In this document: one piece after another, positions 53,761-62,935 of the stretch | Numbering within the stretch: position 1 is the first letter of the stretch | Layout: each line of letters begins with the position of its first letter | Origin: an uncultured beta proteobacterium | GTDB lineage: Bacteria; Pseudomonadota; Gammaproteobacteria; Burkholderiales; Burkholderiaceae_F | Reading direction: 5' to 3' | Assembly: GCA_963780715.1 (NCBI GenBank) | Contig: CAWADK010000002.1 | Coordinates: 21,150-85,149, forward strand | Length of the DNA: 64,000 bases | Translations under genes and position numbers: made by a program | The notes under the pieces: model-generated | What the model was told of the DNA's origin: nothing | The model's database searches: none | What the model saw: only the letters and a program-made list of their open reading frames with translations

Positions 53761-54960
53761 ATGACTTCGCGCCTGCAGCCCTATTTCGCGGTTTGCCCCG
53801 GCGGGCTCGAAGCGGCGCTGGCCGATGAACTGGACGCACTCGGCGCCCGCGAAGTCCGCGAGGAAGGCGGTGGCGTGGCCTTCAGCGGGTCGCGCGAGCT
53901 CGGTTACGCCGTCAACCTGCACTCCCGTATCGCCAGCCGCGTCCTGTGGCAGGTCGGTCGCCGCGGATACACCAACGAGCAGCACCTGTACGACGCCACG
54001 CAGGAAGTGCGCTGGCAGGACCTGATGTCGGCGCAGCAGACGCTGCGCGTCGACGTGACCGCCTCGCGCTCGCCACTGAAGAGCCTGGAGTTCGCGATGC
54101 TGCGGATCAAGGACGGCATCGTCGACCGGCTCCGCACGCTGAGCGGCGCGCGCCCGTCGATCGACCGGCAGGACCCGGACGTGCGTGTGTTCGCCTACCT
54201 CGACGGGCGCACGGTGACGCTCTATGTCGATCTCTCCGGCGAGCCGCTCTTCAAGCGCGGCTGGCGCGCCGACAAGGGCGAAGCGCCGCTGAAGGAGAAC
54301 CTCGCGGCGGGATTGCTCGCGCTCGCCGGCTGGACACCGGCGGTGCCCCTGCTCGACCCCTTCTGCGGCAGCGGCACGATCGCAATCGAAGCGGCCACGA
54401 TCGCGACCCGGCGCGCACCCGGACTGAATCGCTCGTTTGCATTCGAGCGCCTGGCCAACTTCGACCGCGCCGCGTGGCGTCGCCTGAAGGACCGTGCCAT
54501 GGCGGCCGTCGACGACACCGCGACAGCGCTGATCGTCGGCTCCGACATCTCGACGCGCGTCGTCGAGCAGGCGCGCACCAACGCTGGCCTCGCCGGTCTC
54601 GATGCCCTGTTGAGCGACGGCCGTCTGCGGCTGGAAGCGGGCGACGCCCGCACCGTGGAAGCACCGGCCGAGCACGGCATGATCATCTCCAATCCCCCGT
54701 ACGGCGAACAGAGCGCCCCGCGTTCGTCCACCGTGCCAAAGATGATGGGCGAAGTCGGCGACCGGCTGAAAGCAGCCTTCCCCGGCTGGCACGCCTGGTT
54801 CCTGACCTCCGACCGCCAGCTGCCGCGCCAGATGCGCCTGTCAGAAACCCGCAAGCCGGTGCTCTACAACGGGGCGCTGGAGTGCCGGTTCTTCCGGTTC
54901 GAGCTGGTGGGGGGGCGGTACCGGCCGCGCGGCGCGCAACCACCCATAGCCTCCGACTGA
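53761..54960 (+). CDS. THUMP-domain class I SAM-dependent RNA methyltransferase
   Basis: 399 aa with an N-terminal THUMP-like part, SAM motif LDPFCGSGTIAIEA and catalytic NPPYG. Confidence 0.85.
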   Translation: MTSRLQPYFAVCPGGLEAALADELDALGAREVREEGGGVAFSGSRELGYAVNLHSRIASRVLWQVGRRGYTNEQHLYDATQEVRWQDLMSAQQTLRVDVTASRSPLKSLEFAMLRIKDGIVDRLRTLSGARPSIDRQDPDVRVFAYLDGRTVTLYVDLSGEPLFKRGWRADKGEAPLKENLAAGLLALAGWTPAVPLLDPFCGSGTIAIEAATIATRRAPGLNRSFAFERLANFDRAAWRRLKDRAMAAVDDTATALIVGSDISTRVVEQARTNAGLAGLDALLSDGRLRLEAGDARTVEAPAEHGMIISNPPYGEQSAPRSSTVPKMMGEVGDRLKAAFPGWHAWFLTSDRQLPRQMRLSETRKPVLYNGALECRFFRFELVGGRYRPRGAQPPIASD

Positions 54961-55213
54961 AGTCGGCAGTGCGCGTCTACCGAAGTTCCCATACACGTCT
55001 TGTGTGAATTTGCCGGCGGTGCAATGCTGCGTATGCAGTCGGCGTTTGCGAATATCCACTATCGGCAGTGCTCCGAGCGAGACTGAGAATCGAAGATCTG
55101 ACTTCGTCGGGGGAATGCCGTGCTGCTGGCGACATTGCCGGTCACGACCGAGGGATCGGCCCTCGAGGACCGACGTCTCGGCTGAAACTCGAACCGGCGA
55201 GAGTCCGAATGTG

Positions 55214-57011
55214 ATGACGGGGAAGATTGCTGCCCCCAGTTCAGGCTTGAGTTGCCGAGTCGTGCACGCAGCCGTGCTGGTCGTCGATCTCGTCGAGTCG
55301 GTCCGACTCATGGGACTGACGAGTGAGACACGGTGTCAGCGCTGGCAGCACGTTTGTCGAATCACGTCCAGCATGAGGTTCTTCCCGGACCGCCGGGCGC
55401 CTCGTGAAGAGCCTCGGGGACGGGCTGATGGTCGAGTTTGCAAAGGCGCCGCAGGCGGTCCAGGCGGCGGCCTCGATGCACAACTGGATGTCGCAGCACT
55501 GCGAACCGTTGTCTGACGGCAGCAGAATGGCGCTGCGCGCGGGAATCCATGCTTCCAAGATCTTCGACGCTAAACACGACATTCTCGGAGTCGGAGTCAA
55601 TCTCGCTGCGCGGGTCGCGACCCTTGCCGAGGGGGGAGAAACCGTTGCCACGGTCGATGCCCGCGATCTACTGAGCGACTCGCTTGACGCCGATGTCGAA
55701 GACCTGGGCGAATGTCACCTCAAGCACGTTGATCACACGGTAAGGGTCTATCGACTCGGGCCAGCGCAGCAGCGGGAGAGCCTTCCGCCTCGGGAGAGCT
55801 ATTCGACCGAGATTTGCGTTCCGCTGGCTGTCATTCCTTTCTCCGACCGGCTCTCGGTGGATGCCACTGGCGGCATGGGAGACATCATTGCCGACGGCAT
55901 CATCGGCCAGCTTTCCCAATCGCCGGGTCTCCATGTCGTTTCCCGACTCTCCACCGCGTGCCTGAGAGACAGAAACCTTCCGTTGAGCGAAATCGCGACG
56001 CGTCTCGGTGTCCGTTACGTTGTGTCCGGCACCTTCACGCTCGTTGGGGGACAACTTTCGATCGCTTCCGAGCTCTGTGACACGAGCAGCGGGCATGTCG
56101 TTTGGTCGGGCAGGACGGGAGGCGACTGGAGGGATCTGCTTTCGGTCGACAGCCAGCTTGTGCACGAGATTGCCGACACGATACATCGCAAGGTTCTTGA
56201 GACTGCCGCTTCGAGGGCGGTGGTCCGCCCGCTACCAACCCTGGAAAGCTACGAACTCTTTCTCGGCGGTATCGCCATGATGCATCGCGCCAGCCGGGAT
56301 GAGTTCGAGATGAGTCGGAGACTGCTGGAGTCTTTGACGGAACGCCACAGGCGCATCGCCCTTCCCTATGCGTGGTTAGGCAAGTGGTACGTACTTCAGT
56401 CAATTCAAGGTGCAGCCGCCAGCACGCCCCACGCTGCATCTCTGGCTCTCGAGCGGACTGGACGGGCACTCGATCTCGAGCCTTCCAGCGCGCTGGCGCT
56501 CGCCATTGAAGGATTCGTCTACTGTCACCTCAAGAAGGATCTCGATACTGCAGACCTTCGACTTCGCGAGGCATGCAGCTTGAATCCGAGTGAAGGATTT
56601 GCGTGGCTGTTTCTCGCAGTCCAGCTGGCCTTCAAAGGCGAGTCAAGTGAAGCCCTGGAAGCCGCGCAAAGGGCACTGTCCCTCTCGCCTCTGGATCCCC
56701 TGCGTTACTACTACGAGTCGCTGATGGGGTCTTGCGAATTCAGCGCCGGCCACTATGAAGAGGCAATTCGCTGGTGCGAAGCCTCGCGCCGGCGCAATCG
56801 ACAGCACTTGTCGACTTTGCGGGTGCTGATTGCTGCAAACGTCGCCCTGGGCCGTGAAGAGCAGGCTCGACGCGTAGCTTCGGACTTGACGAGGTTGCGC
56901 CCGGACTACAGCGTCGCTGCGTACGAGGCGCACTCTGTGGCAGCGCTATATCCGTTTGGAAAGCAGATTGCGAGCGCAATGCGGGAGGCCGGTATCCCGA
57001 CGATTCGTTGA
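55214..57011 (+). CDS. class III adenylate/guanylate cyclase fused to TolB-N-like and TPR domains; two frame breaks near the 5' end
   Basis: MTGKIAAPSSGLSCRVVHAAVLVVDLVESVRLMG (ORF 55004..55516) contains the first metal Asp. The sequence passes through a third frame (VSNHVQHEVLPG) into ORF 55404..57011. That ORF carries KSLGDGLMVEF, RAGIHASKIF and GVGVNLAARV, then LAVIPFSD...GVRYVVSGT and TPR repeats. Confidence 0.8.
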
Positions 57012-57060
57012 AGCGGAAAGTAAATAGCCGGAACAACGATTACCAAGCGCGGAGGACGAG

Positions 57061-58173
57061 ATGGCGGCACTGGGAGGTTCTGCACTAGGCGGTTCGACGT
57101 TGGGCGGATCCGGGGGATCGGGGGGATCCGGTGGTTCGGGCGGATCCGGTGGGTCCGGAGGATCGGGCGGGTCCGGCACGTTGATGGACGAGTGGGCCAA
57201 CCCGATGGTTGTCAGCGCGCTGTGGTCCAGTCGCGACGGCACCATGGACCGCAACGACCACGAGAGTTTCCTCAAGGGCGGAGGCCAGCCGCCTACTCTC
57301 GATAGCGCTCTGGCGCTCAAGCGCTGGGACCCGTGGGTGAGGATCAATCTGGGCGTTACTGAACTTACTCGGCTCATTGACTACCAAGCCATTGCGCCAG
57401 ATACCTTTGCTGTACTGAATCGAAGCGGCCCGCAGAACCTCGTCAAGATAACAAGACCGGGCATCACATTCTTCGAGAAGCAACTGCCGTTCGTGCAAAG
57501 TTGGGCCGAGTTACGCGATGAGCGTGCGCTCGAAATCCTCGCGCAGATCGACAACCAGTTCGCATTCATCGCGTCGGTCACGGGCCTGAACGTGAGCCGG
57601 AAACGCTGGACCATGGAGTGGCTGACCATCGTCATCCAGTTCGCGATTGCGGTGGAGTCGCGAATCAAGCATGCGTTCGCGTGCTATCGACCCGTGGACT
57701 TGTCACCGCAGGTTCAGCCCATCATCACGACCCCGGGTCATAGCAGCTACCCAATGGGACATGCTGCACAGGCCTTCGCAACGATGGTTGCGCTATGCGG
57801 GCTACTGAAGATCAAGAGCGGATCAAAGGTATACACGCAGCTCTATCGGCAGGCCAGGCGCATCAGTGTCAACCGCACCGTCGCCGGGGTGCACTTCCCG
57901 ATCGACGCGGCCGCAGGACAAGCGCTGGGATACTCGCTGGGTGAGTTCGTCCTTTGTGCCAGTTCAGTAAAGGATGGCACCGTCAATCCTAAGTGTTTCG
58001 ATAGAACATTCGTACCCGTCGGCAACGGAGACGACCCGGCGAATGACTACATGGGCGAAGGACCAGAAAAGCCTCACGGCTGCACAACGGGTACGACGCC
58101 GTTGCCTGTCACGAAGTCTGACATTCTGGAGAAGCTGGCAGCGCTGGCGCGAGAAGAATGGGATCTGCCGTGA
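57061..58173 (+). CDS. soluble PAP2 / vanadium-haloperoxidase-superfamily protein with N-terminal Gly-Ser tail
   Basis: 370 aa with GGAGGA 6 nt upstream of the ATG. Motifs are K203-x6-RP (KHAFACYRP), PMGH (231-234) and R272-x5-H-x3-D (RTVAGVHFPID). There is no signal peptide and no set of TM helices. Confidence 0.7.
   Translation: MAALGGSALGGSTLGGSGGSGGSGGSGGSGGSGGSGGSGTLMDEWANPMVVSALWSSRDGTMDRNDHESFLKGGGQPPTLDSALALKRWDPWVRINLGVTELTRLIDYQAIAPDTFAVLNRSGPQNLVKITRPGITFFEKQLPFVQSWAELRDERALEILAQIDNQFAFIASVTGLNVSRKRWTMEWLTIVIQFAIAVESRIKHAFACYRPVDLSPQVQPIITTPGHSSYPMGHAAQAFATMVALCGLLKIKSGSKVYTQLYRQARRISVNRTVAGVHFPIDAAAGQALGYSLGEFVLCASSVKDGTVNPKCFDRTFVPVGNGDDPANDYMGEGPEKPHGCTTGTTPLPVTKSDILEKLAALAREEWDLP
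57073..57177 (+). repeat. coding (GGS)n low-complexity tract: GGSALGGSTLGG + (SGG)8
   Basis: 9-nt/3-codon periodicity. Codons vary synonymously (GGC/GGA/GGG/GGT and TCC/TCG), so the repeat is kept at peptide level rather than as a perfect DNA microsatellite. Confidence 0.9.
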
Positions 58174-60008
58174 AGCGAAATTTGCGAGAAGTACCTCAAG
58201 GTCGGCACGACGCCTATCTCGATTGGGCGCTGGCAACGGAGTTTCGATTCTTCCAGGCCGATGGTCAGATTGGAATCCTGATCGAGTGGCGCTCCCTGGA
58301 GGCCGCACGGAGAGGGCTCGAGATTGCAAGAAGGTTCGAACTCGAAGTGCCGTCCGTTTATGGAGGTGGCGACAAAGCCAAACCGCGCCGAGTCTGGGCG
58401 ATTTCTGTCCCCGTCGACCTCATCGTCGAATTCGTCTCGACAGCAGGCGACCTGATCGAGCAGCTTGAACTGGCGCTACCAGTCTCTGGTGACGGCACCC
58501 TTCCGAGTGAGGCACGACGACACGTCCAGTCCGACAGGGAAGTCCTAGTCGGTGTGCTCGACGACGGTTGTGCATTCGCAAACACTTTGTTTCAGTTTTC
58601 CGCCAACGACACCCGCGTGCTGTGGCTTTGGAACCAGGACAAGCACGCTGCCGGTTTTCCGCTCGACCCTTCGTCGGGCCCGACTTCGCTCTGCAACTTC
58701 GGCTACGGCGGCCAGTGGTCTGTCGCCGACCTCAATGACATACTTGTCGAAGAGGTCGACGGACAGGCGCCAGCCTACGCGCGGGCCGGGCTGCAGGGCC
58801 TGCGACGAAGCGCCGCACACGGGCCGCACGTCATGGATCTTCTGTGCGGCAAGCGGGAACCCGGAGACTTGATCAATGATGCAGACGTCGTGTTCATTCA
58901 GTTCCCCCAGAAGGCTATTGCTGACCCTTCTGGCCGATGGCTGGCACGGTACGCCCTGGATGGACTGCACTACATAATTGAGTGCGCCGGACCCGGCACT
59001 GGCTGCATTGCCGTCAATTTGAGCTGGGGTCCTCAGACCGGACCCCACGACGGCAGCTCCGTCCTGGAGCGTGCCATCGATGAACTGGTGAATGAACAAT
59101 TCGACGAAGGCCGCTGCCTCATCGTTGCACTGCCGGCGGGCAATTCGTACGGATCGCGAGCGCATGCACAGGTTCGCTACGCGGAGGGTGGCAAACTGAA
59201 TTGGGTCGTACCGCCGGATGGCCATACCCCGGCGTTCTTCGAGGTATGGTGGCCAAGTGGCGTCTCGCCATCCCAAGCATTTCTCCGACTTACTCCGCCG
59301 AGCGGGACGAGCGTGCAAATCGATCCGAACAAACCCTGGACCGAATTGAAGTGGTACGCAAAGTTGAAGACGGTCGGCTCTTCGACCATGGCACTGGTTG
59401 TGGTGCACCCGACTGAGTACAAGGACCCCCAGCGGCGCGGACAACATGGCGTGTGGACTATCGAGTTTGCCCCGGGAGCACCAAGCACCGCCGGGTTGAT
59501 TCACGTTTACGCGGCACGTGCTGACCACAACATGGGTGCACGGCGTCGCGCCAAGGCGAACTACCTTACCGATGCAATGCTCGAGAAGTCACGATTCGCG
59601 GCTCCCAAAGACCGTCACTCAGATGTGGCCGGTTCCGCGATCCAGCGCGCGGGGACGATGAACGGGATTGCCACCGGCGACTATACGGTCGTTGCCTCCG
59701 GTTATCGACACGCTGATGCCACAGCCGCCGCATACTCTTCGTCAGGCCCAACACGCGGACAACGCACCGGGCCGGACTATGCGTTTGTTACGGAAACCTC
59801 ACCTGCGATAGCCGGCATCCGTGCAACAGGTGTACGGAGTGGCACCAGGGTTCGCTTGAGCGGTACCAGTATGGCCTCTCCGCAATTCGCGCGACAGCTT
59901 GTGACAGGACTTCGCGGCACTGTGCCAGCGCCGAATCCTCCGAACGCGACCGAGCGGTTCGGAAACGGACGTATTAAACCCGACCCTGACCTTATCCATC
60001 ACCGTTAG
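58158..60008 (+). CDS. S8 (subtilisin-like) serine peptidase without signal peptide
   Basis: 616 aa with triad contexts VGVLDDGCAF (Asp135/136), AAHGPHVMD (His221) and SGTSMASPQF (Ser571). The ~125-aa N-terminal alpha/beta region is prodomain-like. GTG at 58170 overlaps the upstream stop (GTGA), so the start is 58158 or 58170. Confidence 0.85.
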   Translation: MGSAVKRNLREVPQGRHDAYLDWALATEFRFFQADGQIGILIEWRSLEAARRGLEIARRFELEVPSVYGGGDKAKPRRVWAISVPVDLIVEFVSTAGDLIEQLELALPVSGDGTLPSEARRHVQSDREVLVGVLDDGCAFANTLFQFSANDTRVLWLWNQDKHAAGFPLDPSSGPTSLCNFGYGGQWSVADLNDILVEEVDGQAPAYARAGLQGLRRSAAHGPHVMDLLCGKREPGDLINDADVVFIQFPQKAIADPSGRWLARYALDGLHYIIECAGPGTGCIAVNLSWGPQTGPHDGSSVLERAIDELVNEQFDEGRCLIVALPAGNSYGSRAHAQVRYAEGGKLNWVVPPDGHTPAFFEVWWPSGVSPSQAFLRLTPPSGTSVQIDPNKPWTELKWYAKLKTVGSSTMALVVVHPTEYKDPQRRGQHGVWTIEFAPGAPSTAGLIHVYAARADHNMGARRRAKANYLTDAMLEKSRFAAPKDRHSDVAGSAIQRAGTMNGIATGDYTVVASGYRHADATAAAYSSSGPTRGQRTGPDYAFVTETSPAIAGIRATGVRSGTRVRLSGTSMASPQFARQLVTGLRGTVPAPNPPNATERFGNGRIKPDPDLIHHR

Positions 60009-60059
60009 CGGAGGACAGAGCACGGCGACCGGGTTCCAGCAATCACAACCGACGCGAAT

Positions 60060-60545
60060 TCAGTCGGCCAGTGCTTTCCTGATGTCGGCTTCCAGATCCT
60101 CCGGCTTCGTCGTCGGCGCGTAGCGCTCGATGACGCTGCCGTCCTTGCCCACCAGGAACTTGGTGAAGTTCCACTTGATCGCCTCGCTGCCCAGCAGGCC
60201 TTTCTTGGTGCTCGTCAGGTACTTGAAGAGCGGATGCGCGGCGTCGCCGTTGACGTCGATCTTCGAGAAGAGCGGAAAGGTGACGCCGAAATTCATCTCG
60301 CAGAACTCGGCGATCTCGCTTTCGGGGCCGGGCTCCTGCGCACCGAACTGGTTGCTCGGGAAGCCGAGCACAACGAGGCCCTTGTCCTTGTACTTCTTGT
60401 ACAGGGCCTCGAGACCCTTGTACTGCGGCGTGAAGCCGCACTTGCTGGCGGTGTTGACGACCAGCAGCACCTTGCCCTTGTAGTCAGCAAGCTTGCGCGG
60501 CTTGCCATCGATGGTGGTGGCGCTGAAGTCGTAGACAGTGGTCAT
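60060..60545 (-). CDS. glutathione peroxidase (Cys-type)
   Basis: Start at MTTVYDFSATTIDGKPRKLADYKGKVLLVVNTASKCGFT (residue 19 of ORF 60060..60599); contains FPSNQFGAQEP and WNFTKFLV. Confidence 0.9.
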   Translation of the reverse strand: MTTVYDFSATTIDGKPRKLADYKGKVLLVVNTASKCGFTPQYKGLEALYKKYKDKGLVVLGFPSNQFGAQEPGPESEIAEFCEMNFGVTFPLFSKIDVNGDAAHPLFKYLTSTKKGLLGSEAIKWNFTKFLVGKDGSVIERYAPTTKPEDLEADIRKALAD

Positions 60546-60646
60546 GGCCGGCTCTCCGAAACGGAATGCAGGCAGTGTAGCGGCGGGCTCTGCGCCCAAT
60601 GAAAACGGGACGCCGCGCGCCCCGTTGCATGAGCTCGCGACCGGAC

Positions 60647-61789
60647 CTAACCGGCCAGCCCGAGGTGCTCGATACCCTTATGGATTCCGGCCACCCCGCC
60701 TGAGAGCTTGCTGTTGAGCTTGATCTGCAGCCGCAGGTCGTTCACGGAGTCCGCATTGCGCAGTGCGTCTTCGTAGGAGATCTGCTCGCGCTCGTGCAGG
60801 TCGAACAGCGACTGGTCGAAGGTCTGCATGCCCTGCTCGCGCGCCCGCTTCATCACTTCCTTGATCTCGTGCACCTCGCCCTTGAACACGAGGTCGGCAA
60901 TCAGCGGGTTGTTGATCATGATCTCGACCGCCGGGATGCGGCCCTTGCGGTCCTTGAACGGGATCAGGCGCTGCGACATCATCGCGCGCAGGTTAAGCGA
61001 GAGATCCATCAGCAGCTGCTGGCGCTTCTCTTCGGGGAAGAAGTTGATGATGCGGTCGAGCGCCTGGTTGGTCGAATTGGCGTGCAGCGTGCACATCACC
61101 AGGTGACCGGTTTCGGCGAACGCGATCGCGTGTTCCATCGTCTCGCGCTCGCGCACCTCGCCGATCAGGATGACGTCAGGCGCCTGGCGCAGCGTGTTCT
61201 TCAGCGCGATCTGCCAGCTTTCGCAGTCCACGCCGACTTCGCGCTGCGTGATGATGCAGTTCTTGTGCGGGTGAACATACTCGATCGGGTCTTCGATCGT
61301 GATGATGTGGCCGTTGGAATTCTCGTTGCGGTAGCCGACCATCGCCGCGAGCGATGTCGACTTGCCGGAGCCCGTTGCACCGACCACGATGATGATGCCG
61401 CGCTTGGCCATCGCCAGGTCGTTGATCAGGTGCGGCAGGTTGAGTTCGTCGGTGGTCGGAATGTGGTCCGCGATCGTCCGGAAGACGATGCCGACCTTGC
61501 CCTGCTGCACGAAGGCGGAGACGCGGAAGCGCCCGATGCCGGTCGGGTTGATCGCGAAGTTGCACTCCTTGGTCTTCTCGAACTCCGCCGCCTGGCGGTC
61601 GTTCATGATTGCGCGCACCAGCTCGCCCGTGTGCTGCGACGTCAGCGGCTGGTTCGACACCGGCAGTACGCGCCCGTCGATCTTGAAGGCGGGCGGAAAG
61701 TCGGCGGTTAGGAAGAGGTCGGAGCCCTTCTTGCTGTGCAGAAGCCGCAGCAAGTCGTGGACAAATCGTGTGGCCTGGTCGCGTTCCAT
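60647..61789 (-). CDS. pilU: type IV pilus retraction ATPase PilU
   Basis: 380 aa with Walker A GATGSGKST, and PilT-family Asp and His boxes. Sits immediately downstream of pilT. Confidence 0.9.
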   Translation of the reverse strand: MERDQATRFVHDLLRLLHSKKGSDLFLTADFPPAFKIDGRVLPVSNQPLTSQHTGELVRAIMNDRQAAEFEKTKECNFAINPTGIGRFRVSAFVQQGKVGIVFRTIADHIPTTDELNLPHLINDLAMAKRGIIIVVGATGSGKSTSLAAMVGYRNENSNGHIITIEDPIEYVHPHKNCIITQREVGVDCESWQIALKNTLRQAPDVILIGEVRERETMEHAIAFAETGHLVMCTLHANSTNQALDRIINFFPEEKRQQLLMDLSLNLRAMMSQRLIPFKDRKGRIPAVEIMINNPLIADLVFKGEVHEIKEVMKRAREQGMQTFDQSLFDLHEREQISYEDALRNADSVNDLRLQIKLNSKLSGGVAGIHKGIEHLGLAG

Positions 61790-61818
61790 GGTTTACCGCC
61801 CTTTACTGCCTTTGTGAT

Positions 61819-61890
61819 GAAAAAAATCGTCTGGCTCCGCCAGCGATTTTTTCCGTTCGACCGCGCAAAAGTAGGTTTGCACTTTTGCGC
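61819..61890 (-). terminator. tandem hairpins between pilT and pilU; the distal one is a rho-independent terminator
   Basis: GCGCAAAAG-N10-CTTTTGCGC (61862-61889) lies directly after the pilT stop. It is followed by a bulged stem ATCGTCTGGC-tcc-GCCAGCGAT flanked by A7/T6 (61819-61851), which gives a U-run on the minus strand. Confidence 0.6.
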
Positions 61891-61891
61891 G

Positions 61892-62935
61892 CTAACCCAC
61901 GAAGGACTCGGGAGTCTTCGCGTACTGACGCGCTTCGGCGATCGACACCACGTTGCGGCGAACCAGTTCGAGCAGCGTCTGGTCGAGCGTCTGCATGCCG
62001 AACTGCTGGCCGGTCTGGATCATCGAGTACATCTGCGCCACCTTGTTCTCGCGGATCAGGTTGCGGATGGCCGGCGTGCCGACCATGATCTCGTGCGCCG
62101 CCACGCGGCCATTGCCGTCCTTGACCTTCAGCAGCGTCTGCGAGATCACCGCGACCACCGACTCCGACAGCATCGCGCGCACCATTTCCTTTTCCGCCGC
62201 GGGGAACACGTCGACCACGCGGTCGATCGTCTTGGCGGCCGATGAGGTGTGCAGCGTGCCGAACACCAGGTGGCCCGTCTCGGCGGCCGTCAGCGCCAGG
62301 CGGATCGTCTCGAGGTCGCGCAGCTCGCCGACCAGCACCACGTCCGGGTCCTCGCGCAACGCCGAGCGCAGGGCATTCGAAAACGACAGCGTGTGCGGCC
62401 CGACCTCGCGCTGGTTGATGACCGACTTGCGGCTCTCGTGCACGAACTCGATCGGGTCCTCGATCGTCAGGATGTGGCCGTACAGGTTGTTGTTGACATG
62501 GTCGACCATCGCCGCCAGCGTCGTCGACTTGCCGGAGCCGGTCGGACCGGTCACCAGCACCAGTCCGCGCGGCTTCAGCGAAAAGTCCGCAAACTGCCGC
62601 GGGCACTGCAGTTCTTCCAGCGACAGCACGCGCGAAGGAATCGTCCGCAGTACCGCGGCCGCACCACGGTCCTGGTTGAAGGCATTGACCCGGAAACGCG
62701 CCAGGCCCGGCAGGTCGAACGAGAAGTCGGTTTCCAGGTTCTCGTCGTACTGCTTGCGCTGTGCGTCGTTCATGATGTCGTAGATCATGCCGTGCACGTC
62801 CTTGTGCTCCAGCGGCGGCAGGTTGATGCGCCGCACGTCGCCGTGCACCCGGATCATTGGCGGCAGACCGGCAGAGAGGTGCAGGTCCGAGGCCTTATTC
62901 TTGACGGAAAATGCGAGCAGTTCTGAGATATCCAT
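61892..62935 (-). CDS. pilT: type IV pilus twitching-motility ATPase PilT
   Basis: 347 aa: MDISELLAFSVKNKASDLHLSAGLPPMIRVHGDVRRI..., with Walker A GPTGSGKST. Confidence 0.95.
   Translation of the reverse strand: MDISELLAFSVKNKASDLHLSAGLPPMIRVHGDVRRINLPPLEHKDVHGMIYDIMNDAQRKQYDENLETDFSFDLPGLARFRVNAFNQDRGAAAVLRTIPSRVLSLEELQCPRQFADFSLKPRGLVLVTGPTGSGKSTTLAAMVDHVNNNLYGHILTIEDPIEFVHESRKSVINQREVGPHTLSFSNALRSALREDPDVVLVGELRDLETIRLALTAAETGHLVFGTLHTSSAAKTIDRVVDVFPAAEKEMVRAMLSESVVAVISQTLLKVKDGNGRVAAHEIMVGTPAIRNLIRENKVAQMYSMIQTGQQFGMQTLDQTLLELVRRNVVSIAEARQYAKTPESFVG

Follow-up and report, generated by a model that had tools for sequence, protein, structure and literature searches.

The described systems that come closest to the locus reported here are the clostridial Csp proteases, the class A acid phosphatases and the cyclase-based immune systems. 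In CspB the prodomain stays bound to the mature enzyme and occludes its active site, a jellyroll insert stabilises the enzyme, and Csp activity cleaves the zymogen pro-SleC (PMC3567191). Proteins that resemble components of all three are combined in a single cassette that we analysed in a 64,000-nt stretch (the window) of contig CAWADK010000002.1 from an uncultured beta proteobacterium, where three genes, coding for a class III cyclase with tetratricopeptide repeats (cyclase-TPR), a PAP2-type phosphatase (PAP2) and an S8-family subtilase (S8), lie between the core genes for a THUMP/RlmL-like RNA methyltransferase (THUMP) and a glutathione peroxidase (gpx) (Table 1). We are highly confident that this is a horizontally acquired 5.1-kb cassette in a lineage-specific hotspot, belonging to a large family of three-gene operons. 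The best explanation of the whole, to which we give a probability of about 0.4, is that such a cassette encodes a protease-gated phosphatase under the control of a cyclic nucleotide monophosphate (cNMP) and of the TPR protein. The component families are known, and the logic of a cyclase with hydrolases, and of a protease with its zymogen, has known parallels; what is new is the tail of tripeptide repeats and the combination itself, which joins a cyclase-TPR protein, a germination-type zymogen protease in non-sporulators and a cytoplasmic phosphatase with a hypervariable tail, parts not seen together before. The initial annotation knew of no described system of this composition, and we likewise found no description of the operon in the searchable literature, no defence-database model, nothing specific in PADLOC or PHROGs, and no curated family; NCBIfam assigned none of the three proteins to a specific family.

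The S8 protein comprises a prodomain (approximately residues 1-115), a catalytic domain with Asp135, His221, Asn287 and Ser571, and a jellyroll insert; alignments of 14 and of 82 homologues show no variation at D135, H221 and S571 and none or almost none at N287. Its AlphaFold2 model (predicted local distance difference test, pLDDT, 93) retrieves CspC, CspA and CspB in Foldseek with E values of 1e-24 to 1e-20 over 530-646 alignment columns, and a profile search of the PDB also returned Csp (E 1e-15). As modelled, S8 is a subtilase of the Csp fold over its whole length, with a retained N-terminal prodomain and the jellyroll insert (template modelling, TM, score 0.6-0.7). Its annotation as a protease, made initially from the sequence, is borne out by the conserved triad; the Csp-like nature of the enzyme had been missed. 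Like CspB, it is non-secreted and has an intact Asp/His/Ser triad, and the neighbouring gene codes for a hydrolase that may be a zymogen on which it acts. Sequence identity to the Csp proteins is only 13-16%, and the hosts are Gram-negative, non-sporulating Proteobacteria (Burkholderiales, Alphaproteobacteria), in which a role in germination does not apply. The partner also differs, being a PAP2 phosphatase with a tripeptide tail and not a cortex lytic enzyme, linked moreover to a cyclase-TPR gene, and no SleC-like gene was found near the trio.

That partner had been called 'PAP2-like', an identity upheld by the Pfam match and by the presence of all three motifs, KX6RP, PxGH (as PSGH) and SRX5HX3D, in which K203, R210, (P211), H234, R272, H278 and D282 are invariant among 33 homologues. 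The AlphaFold2 model (pLDDT 84) has its best Foldseek matches in the acid phosphatases of P. aeruginosa, PhoC, PhoN and E. blattae (TM-score to target 0.6-0.67), so that the protein, as modelled, has the class A acid phosphatase fold. It resembles these enzymes in core fold and in the three signature motifs, and differs from them in lacking a signal peptide, in about 150 extra N-terminal residues (repeat tail and a small beta subdomain), in a C-terminal extension and in its fixed context with a protease and a TPR protein. No signal peptide or transmembrane segment was found in PAP2 (maximum KD19 1.27), which places it neither among secreted or periplasmic proteins nor among integral membrane proteins. 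Both hydrolases had initially been described as cytoplasmic, and on the basis of the alignments and of the absence of transmembrane segments and signal peptides all three proteins are predicted to be soluble and cytoplasmic, with catalytic residues conserved across each family.

What had been overlooked in PAP2 is its N-terminal tail. In the window, residues 1-45 are disordered in the model (pLDDT <50) and include (Gly-Gly-Ser)x8, encoded by tandem 9-bp repeats; 46 of 48 distinct homologues likewise have 5-13 tandem tripeptides right at their N-terminal end. Within one protein the unit stays constant, and it differs among proteins, with approximately 18 different units (GGS, GGT, GGA, GGV, GGL, GGI, GGF, GGY, MGG, SGH, SGI, SGW, SGY, NGI, AGF, AGL, EGM, DAN). 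A Shine-Dalgarno sequence and a start codon precede the array, by few codons and usually four, in 46/48 homologues, and the RefSeq annotation of the Bosea PAP2 includes its (GGI)8 tail. The position of these start signals, together with the number of different period-3 units, shows the tail to be part of the predicted translation product, and its strict three-residue period, combined with units that vary freely, points to a constraint at the protein level. The segment behind the tail contains a conserved AL..RDG motif. Many public gene calls (JGI; PGAP for Variovorax) start PAP2 after the repeats (P0121-P0162; L158:6114-7004; L160:6186-7004), which leaves some 300 nt of apparently 'intergenic' DNA and therefore removes the tail from many database entries. 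Two closely related cassettes (L002 and L009) differ by one repeat unit, and short-read contigs break inside the array.

The three genes belong together well beyond this genome. S8 has more than 140 close-to-moderate homologues, and a profile search over 1.84 billion representatives recovered 3,487 clusters at E<=1e-30 (approximately 3,500 clusters at 50% identity). Eighty (80) metagenome loci showing an S8 alignment were retrieved, and their genes annotated with hidden Markov models that had been built by iteration; in all 57 loci with enough upstream DNA the order is cyclase-TPR, PAP2, S8 on one strand, the remaining 23/80 being too short upstream to judge the first gene. Among cultured bacteria the full trio is carried by Variovorax dokdonensis, V. 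ginsengisoli and Paraburkholderia sp. C35, and the co-occurrence that the initial annotation had put forward as a check thus holds in metagenomes and in both of these genera. In Variovorax sp. J22P271 an XRE-type helix-turn-helix (HTH) gene takes the place of the cyclase beside PAP2-S8, and on a Bosea plasmid the pair is accompanied by a TPR protein without a cyclase domain and by a divergent LuxR gene. Because the first gene is swapped in these two variants, PAP2-S8 appears to be the constant core and the TPR/cyclase protein its usual partner. The operon is kept gene by gene across Beta- and Alphaproteobacteria, on chromosomes as well as megaplasmids; homologues occur on 11 large plasmids, and none was found in phage genomes.

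In a survey of 109 nearest neighbours from approximately 38 loci, the commonest families were cNMP_binding with a Crp-type HTH, and LuxR/GerE. In 23 (45%) of the 51 loci that extend far enough downstream, S8 is immediately followed, on the other strand, by a CRP-like gene (15 loci), a LuxR-like gene (18 loci) or both, and in Paraburkholderia sp. C35 a cNMP_binding-GerE fusion lies upstream of the trio. The combination of an adenylate-type cyclase, a TPR sensor and an adjacent CRP or LuxR gene is shared with cyclase/ATPase/TPR/LuxR regulators and cAMP-CRP circuits, from which the trio differs in having the regulator domains on separate proteins and in the PAP2-S8 pair after the cyclase, which has no counterpart there. 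PADLOC matches among the neighbours were generic only (cNMP-binding regulators, Ser/Thr kinases), the single exception being AbiU2 in V. dokdonensis (L158:1376-2035), in which the trio lies approximately 2 kb from this HEPN_AbiU2 gene and a UDG-family gene.

Composition and comparison with relatives identify the trio as an insert. The lower-G+C islet of three genes between two core genes that was noticed in the initial annotation is real, with a G+C content of approximately 0.60 from the THUMP stop to the gpx stop vs 0.68-0.70 on the left, and measured per gene as third-codon-position G+C (GC3) the cyclase, PAP2 and S8 genes reach 0.68, 0.70 and 0.64, vs 0.82-0.90 for THUMP, gpx, pilU, pilT, yggS, proA and dsbA. 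It is by GC3 that the islet stands out in the sliding-window and codon-composition check proposed at the time. Overall G+C, in contrast, fails as a marker on the right, where gpx, pilU and pilT also have 0.61-0.64 and only GC3 separates them; the line of 47% that had been counted by hand is a local extreme. Over positions 60060-62935 of the window, which hold these three genes, total G+C is 0.61-0.64 yet GC3 is 0.87-0.90, and a plain G+C profile would wrongly stretch the islet by 3 kb. The gene arrangement described earlier also stands: the genes are co-oriented, a 49-nt gap (57012-57060) with the strong ribosome-binding site GGAGGA separates cyclase and PAP2, and PAP2 and S8 overlap at GTGA, S8 starting at ATG 58158 or at GTG 58170 within the GTGA.

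A search with the THUMP protein, in which each GTDB species was represented by a single genome, gave 73 loci in metagenome-assembled genomes of Burkholderiaceae, which were classified by tblastn with the window proteins. In at least 26 related species (THUMP identity 65-78%) the site is empty, the stops of the convergent THUMP and gpx genes being 12-230 bp apart or overlapping. Occupied sites, with a trio of 5.1-5.8 kb that is always lower in G+C than the flank, were found only in the closest clade (THUMP 79-95% identical), and there all eight of the closest relatives, counted by species, have the trio in this position. The insertion between two core genes thus passes the comparison of empty and occupied sites. 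The cassettes fall into two types (Table 1) whose relationship is incongruent with that of the flanks: L007 and L010 have a THUMP identity of 93% but an S8 identity of 27-29%, whereas L009, with THUMP at 86%, has an S8 of 57%, and pilU and pilT are 95-99% identical across all these loci. S8 diverges fastest of the three. Judged by these identities, vertical divergence is excluded as an account, and the cassettes would have been replaced, or are an old polymorphism shuffled by recombination; together with the empty sites in relatives, the incongruence marks them as horizontal and replaceable.

The same site holds other cargo in further relatives, including a module of a cyclase-AAA16(STAND)-TPR protein (in L012) with patatin and DyP-type proteins (in L012 and L008), of which the cyclase alone matches PADLOC (PycC, 4e-10), as well as a radical-SAM cluster and several remnants. 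In L013 an Opp-like importer sits between THUMP and the upstream element of the trio, and L008 has such an importer at the same site. The THUMP/gpx junction would therefore be a useful natural hotspot in which to find further accessory modules of this Burkholderiaceae clade. As stated in the initial annotation, integrase, transposase and tRNA genes are not present: no integrase or transposase was found among the open reading frames (ORFs) by ORF list and Pfam, and the tRNA scan found none. By the marks of an integrative island (recombinase, tRNA or 3'-end target, att repeats) the locus does not qualify as one; L001 does have a diverged duplicate of the 3' end of THUMP.

An 83-nt non-coding element that occurs once in the window lies upstream of the cyclase gene and probably is the local promoter or operator of the cassette. 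In nearly all clade loci that carry it, with either cassette type, the distance from it to the codon of the catalytic Asp further downstream is 268-283 nt; in L001, owing to an extra 135-bp duplication, its position is -413. In L013 it travels with the trio. Type A and type B cassettes share 30-40% identity in their proteins and 87-97% in this element. No sigma-70 or Rfam model fitted the element. We rejected it as a CRP site, since it contains a TGTGA half-site only, and the palindrome TGTGA-N6-TCACA is not a consistent feature of the DNA upstream of any cassette.

Table 1. Features of the cassette, its borders and the same site in relatives. Positions are those of the window unless a locus is named; identities are to the window.
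Feature	Position or locus	Strand	Description
Islet (cassette)	54961-60059	+	about 5.1 kb, three co-oriented genes
Conserved upstream element	54980..55062, core 55000-55030	+	non-coding, 83 nt; core TTGTGTGAATTTGCCGGCGGTGCAATGCTGC
Cyclase gene, 5' fragment	55214..55516	+	frame 2; ATG 55214, stop 55514-16; encodes MTGKIAAP...VLVVDLVESVRLMG, with the first metal-binding Asp
Cyclase gene, remainder	55377..57011	+	frame 0; behind TGA 55374-76, first start GTG 55404
Shine-Dalgarno of PAP2 gene	57051..57056	+	GGAGGA
PAP2 gene	57061..58173	+	soluble PAP2/class-A-acid-phosphatase-like enzyme (predicted), 370 aa; ATG 57061; Pfam PAP2 2e-10, above gathering score
Tandem 9-bp repeats	57103..57177	+	(Gly-Gly-Ser)x8, PAP2 residues 15-39; TRF
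S8 gene	58158..60008	+	cytoplasmic Csp-like subtilase (predicted), 616 aa; Pfam S8
THUMP gene (left flank)	53761..54960	+	core gene, THUMP/RlmL-like RNA methyltransferase; Pfam RlmL_1st/THUMP/UPF0020; GC3 0.87
THUMP stop	54958-54960	+	TGA
gpx gene (right flank)	60060..60599	-	core gene, glutathione peroxidase; Pfam GSHPx; GC3 0.87
gpx stop	60060-60062	-	
Putative direct repeat, left	54961-54971	+	AGTCGGCAGTG, directly after THUMP stop
Putative direct repeat, right	60062-60073		AGTCGGCCAGTG, inside gpx coding end (last gpx codons)
Type A cassette	L005		THUMP 95%; cyclase/PAP2/S8 80/81/70%
Type A cassettes	L009, L065		THUMP 86%; cyclase/PAP2/S8 76/75/57%
Type B cassettes	L007, L010		THUMP 93%; cyclase/PAP2/S8 36-39/32-41/27-30% (range over all type B)
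Type B cassette	L042		THUMP 86%; within the range over all type B
Type B cassettes	L011, L014		THUMP 79-81%; within the range over all type B
Alternative cargo	L012 (11203-20847)		1058-aa cyclase-AAA16(STAND)-TPR, 670-aa protein without family match, 1070-aa patatin + Dyp_perox_C protein
Alternative cargo	L008 (17474-20992)		1172-aa protein with DyP_N and patatin matches
Opp-like oligopeptide ABC importer	L013 (11304-17401), L008 (11264-16903)		SBP_bac_5, two permeases, ATPase
Radical-SAM cluster	L069		same site
Remnants	L006, L059, L071		same site
Regulators beside trio (examples)	L151:9911-11292, L145:8552-9944, L159:1601-2647 and about 20 other loci		CRP family (cNMP_binding + HTH_Crp_2), LuxR/GerE

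The first gene had been annotated as a cyclase-TPR gene, and the class III domain and the TPR repeats are both there; as a single ORF it does not stand, because in the window it is split between frames 2 and 0 and an uninterrupted catalytic domain is not present. The frame-2 fragment is homologous to intact relatives up to approximately 55350 only and then runs out of frame, and in a three-frame translation the frame-0 continuation reads GRLVKSLGDGLMVEF... The remainder encodes GRLVKSLGDG...VNLAAR, which completes the class III domain, followed by a TolB/FlgO-like domain in the middle and by TPR repeats at the C-terminus, with matches to Pfam TPR_2/TPR_14, a weak match to FlgO and one to the NCBIfam LipJ cyclase region (4e-8); neither fragment matches Pfam Guanylate_cyc. 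A match to NCBIfam TIGR04510, 'peptide modification system cyclase', was discarded as generic TolB/TPR similarity (28 bits vs a cut-off of 400). In the family as a whole the consensus vLvvD.VES...VKslGDG...DiyG.gVNLaAR is conserved in 43 full-length homologues (its first part extending to vLvvD.VESVRlm) and keeps both metal-binding Asp residues, the Lys/Asp purine-specifying pair and the Asn/Arg transition-state residues, so that the residues of a class III adenylyl/guanylyl cyclase (PF00211) are present family-wide. The Lys/Asp specificity pair suggests a purine substrate, presumably ATP; the product in Pycsar is cCMP/cUMP. The intact cyclase of the sibling contig matches bacterial class III cyclases in the PDB (3mr7, 2e-15; Ma1120, 4e-13).

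This sibling contig (L001; ENA ERZ25039503 contig_44904, 1.01 Mb) is distinct from the window, encodes an identical S8 protein (100%) and has an uninterrupted cyclase-TPR gene of 605 aa. Over 15.6 kb the two are 99.7-99.96% identical apart from window positions 54900-55420, which differ from L001:6630-7263 by approximately 70 substitutions, approximately 50 gap positions and at least three indels. L001 has here an extra tandem unit of approximately 135 bp (the 3' end of THUMP, duplicated in diverged form, together with the upstream element) that is missing from the window. The divergent stretch looks like a chimera of the two tandem copies of L001, and short-read contigs of three metagenomes join 54971 straight to the continuation of 'copy 2'. 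Logan contigs of four unrelated freshwater or sediment metagenomes (X1, X2, X3, X6) agree with the L001-type sequence and not with the window, showing, relative to the window, compensated indel pairs near 55239/55263 and, in the last THUMP codons, at 54938/54947, and 68 nt vs 69 nt in 55319-55387. The window's version of the cyclase is therefore private, and reflects either real pseudogenisation or a poor long-read consensus over some 500 bp at a structurally heterogeneous spot. The reading that in this genome the cassette is a decaying remnant, with the cyclase a true pseudogene and the module no longer a working unit, is accordingly finely balanced: the indels and dense substitutions are confined to this stretch, and independent short-read contigs match the intact form, but PAP2 and S8 are intact, S8 without a single difference from that of the sibling, the divergence coincides with the spot of the 135-bp duplication, where a long-read metagenome consensus can fail, and PAP2-S8 may, to judge from the variant loci, function with other partners elsewhere.

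For the cassette in its intact form we propose, tentatively, that the PAP2-S8 pair is the working core and operates as a zymogen-type system analogous to CspB and pro-SleC. The subtilase would be held in check by its own prodomain and, once released, would cut PAP2 either in the repeat tail or in the segment with the AL..RDG motif that follows, a target to which the CspB-SleC analogy and the invariant gene pairing point. Cutting of the tail would switch on, or free, the phosphatase, which may then act on cytoplasmic phosphomonoesters. The TPR protein would be the sensor or regulator, binding a protein or peptide cue and possibly the repeat tail itself, and the cyclase domain, adenylate-type by its K/D pair, would make a cNMP that in many genomes could be read by the CRP- or LuxR-type cNMP-binding regulators encoded beside the operon; the output of the cyclase would thus be read mainly by transcription factors. 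As to the role, a conflict function (abortive-infection-like or anti-mobile-element) is the best fit, albeit a doubtful one, with strain-specific peptide signalling second. The fast, patchy and incongruent evolution of the cassettes, the cyclase-STAND-TPR plus patatin module in the same hotspot of sister species, and the AbiU2 neighbour in V. dokdonensis favour conflict. If the trio is a conflict system it would have a new effector logic, the protease-gated phosphatase, and if it is a signalling system, a new peptide/cNMP circuit.

Several observations weigh against this proposal. That S8 cuts the tail is suggested only by the linkage of the genes and by the parallel with Csp, and any link from the cyclase to either hydrolase is a conjecture, because no cNMP-binding domain can be recognised in S8 or PAP2. 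Class A acid phosphatases are normally periplasmic, and PAP2 here has no signal peptide. The clade of the window has no CRP/LuxR regulator at the site. Against a conflict role in particular, neither defence genes nor integrases and transposases were enriched among the 109 neighbours, the three ORFs of the window have no matches in PADLOC (E<=0.01) or PHROGs, the intact cyclase of the sibling reaches only a weak match to PycC (PDLC02367, E 6.5e-5, 20.5 bits), which is generic class III homology, and the defence-island screens that PADLOC-DB v2 represents have not brought up this abundant family.

A stricter version, implied by the initial annotation, is a Pycsar/CBASS-like anti-phage system in which the nucleotide made by the cyclase directly activates the two hydrolases, killing or arresting the infected cell. 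It draws on much of the same evidence: a cyclase with two cytoplasmic hydrolases whose active sites are intact, a horizontally mobile, fast-evolving and patchily distributed trio, the weak PycC match of the intact cyclase, the cyclase-AAA16-TPR and DyP/patatin proteins of the hotspot in L012/L008, and the HEPN_AbiU2 neighbour in V. dokdonensis. In these traits the trio resembles Pycsar/Pucsar and the 'immune clade' of STAND/TPR-fused cyclases, which likewise pair a class III cyclase with candidate effector enzymes, and an immune function has been predicted for cNMP cyclases fused to STAND (bioRxiv 10.64898/2026.08.12.744502). Unlike in Pycsar, however, the hydrolases contain no cNMP-binding, TIR or transmembrane parts, nor SAVED or CARF-like domains (Pfam, structure searches), and no PADLOC model matches the three ORFs at the threshold given above; CD-NTase (SMODS) or Cap matches, as would point to CBASS, were not found in the three genes by PADLOC or Pfam. 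The neighbouring cNMP readers are transcription factors, PAP2-S8 also pairs with non-cyclase partners, defence genes are not enriched nearby, and phage homologues were not found, so that this model is not supported and we consider it unlikely. We hold about equally improbable the broader notion that the trio is an unrecognised type of module in which a Csp-like subtilase acts on the tripeptide tail, either as a proteolytic 'fuse' arming a toxic phosphatase or to release, in many copies, a strain-specific tripeptide that is read by the TPR-cyclase and relayed by cNMP to CRP/LuxR; the second of these, if true, would make it the first RRNPP-like, pherotype-forming peptide system of Proteobacteria.

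Somewhat less probable again is peptide signalling of the RRNPP or pheromone kind, in which the subtilase trims the repeats and frees tripeptides or short oligomers, the TPR protein senses them, cNMP drives CRP/LuxR and the different units act as 'pherotypes'. TPR receptors typically bind short peptides, and subtilisin-family enzymes are known to process multi-copy pheromone precursors and to remove tripeptides (Kex2, TPPII). The trio has in common with RRNPP systems and multi-copy precursors a TPR protein, a subtilase and a repeated short peptide that varies by strain, and to this may be added the strict three-residue period of a unit that is uniform within one protein and different between homologues, the regulators adjoining 45% of loci, the presence in one place of allelic cassette types that do not follow phylogeny, a pattern also shown by pherotype loci, and the Opp-like importer, which adjoins the trio in L013 and is also present at this site in L008. 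On the other hand, the repeats are fused to a 370-aa cytoplasmic enzyme and not contained in a small secreted pro-peptide, there is neither a secretion signal nor an exporter dedicated to them (neither ABC nor MFS ranks among the commonest neighbour families), and the TPR repeats are fused to a cyclase and not to the HTH or phosphatase output of RRNPP receptors. In addition, S8 resembles the Csp endoproteases and not TPPII, a phosphatase domain of 300 aa that is predicted to be catalytically intact would be an odd 'carrier', and tripeptides such as GGS carry little information.

That the trio is an ordinary vertically inherited operon, its odd composition due to amino-acid content or expression level and not to insertion, can practically be set aside, for although it has the same position in all eight closest relatives and an upstream element that looks native, it is absent from at least 26 more distant relatives with their stops 12-230 bp apart, has a GC3 0.2 under every neighbour, includes cassettes 27-30% identical in protein inside flanks 93-99% identical, and recurs in unrelated contexts and on plasmids.

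The islet had also been described as bracketed by a direct repeat. The two sequences exist and are the sole matches of the pattern within the window; as an insertion scar the repeat was rejected. The pattern had been defined from the data themselves, the longest exact word common to both copies is 7 nt and is common in shuffled sequence (p ~0.25), at least 60 similar short repeat families occur within the 5.4 kb, the right copy consists of gpx codons, and no comparable junction repeat was found at eight other occupied loci, which together argue that it is no signature of insertion.

Scans of the islet for sigma-70 promoters, terminators and Rfam families gave nothing over background. The THUMP methyltransferase is 399 aa long in the window and 395 aa in relatives (the sibling contig also being called at 395 aa), ending in ...PRGAQPPIASD* (window 54930-54960) vs ...PRAGNLP*, its altered last codons resulting from the small indels at 54938 and 54947 relative to the short-read contigs. 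On the other side, in the relative with 57% S8 identity (L002/L065:12015-12404), gpx matches over 72% of its length and is uncalled as a gene, and may possibly be decaying.

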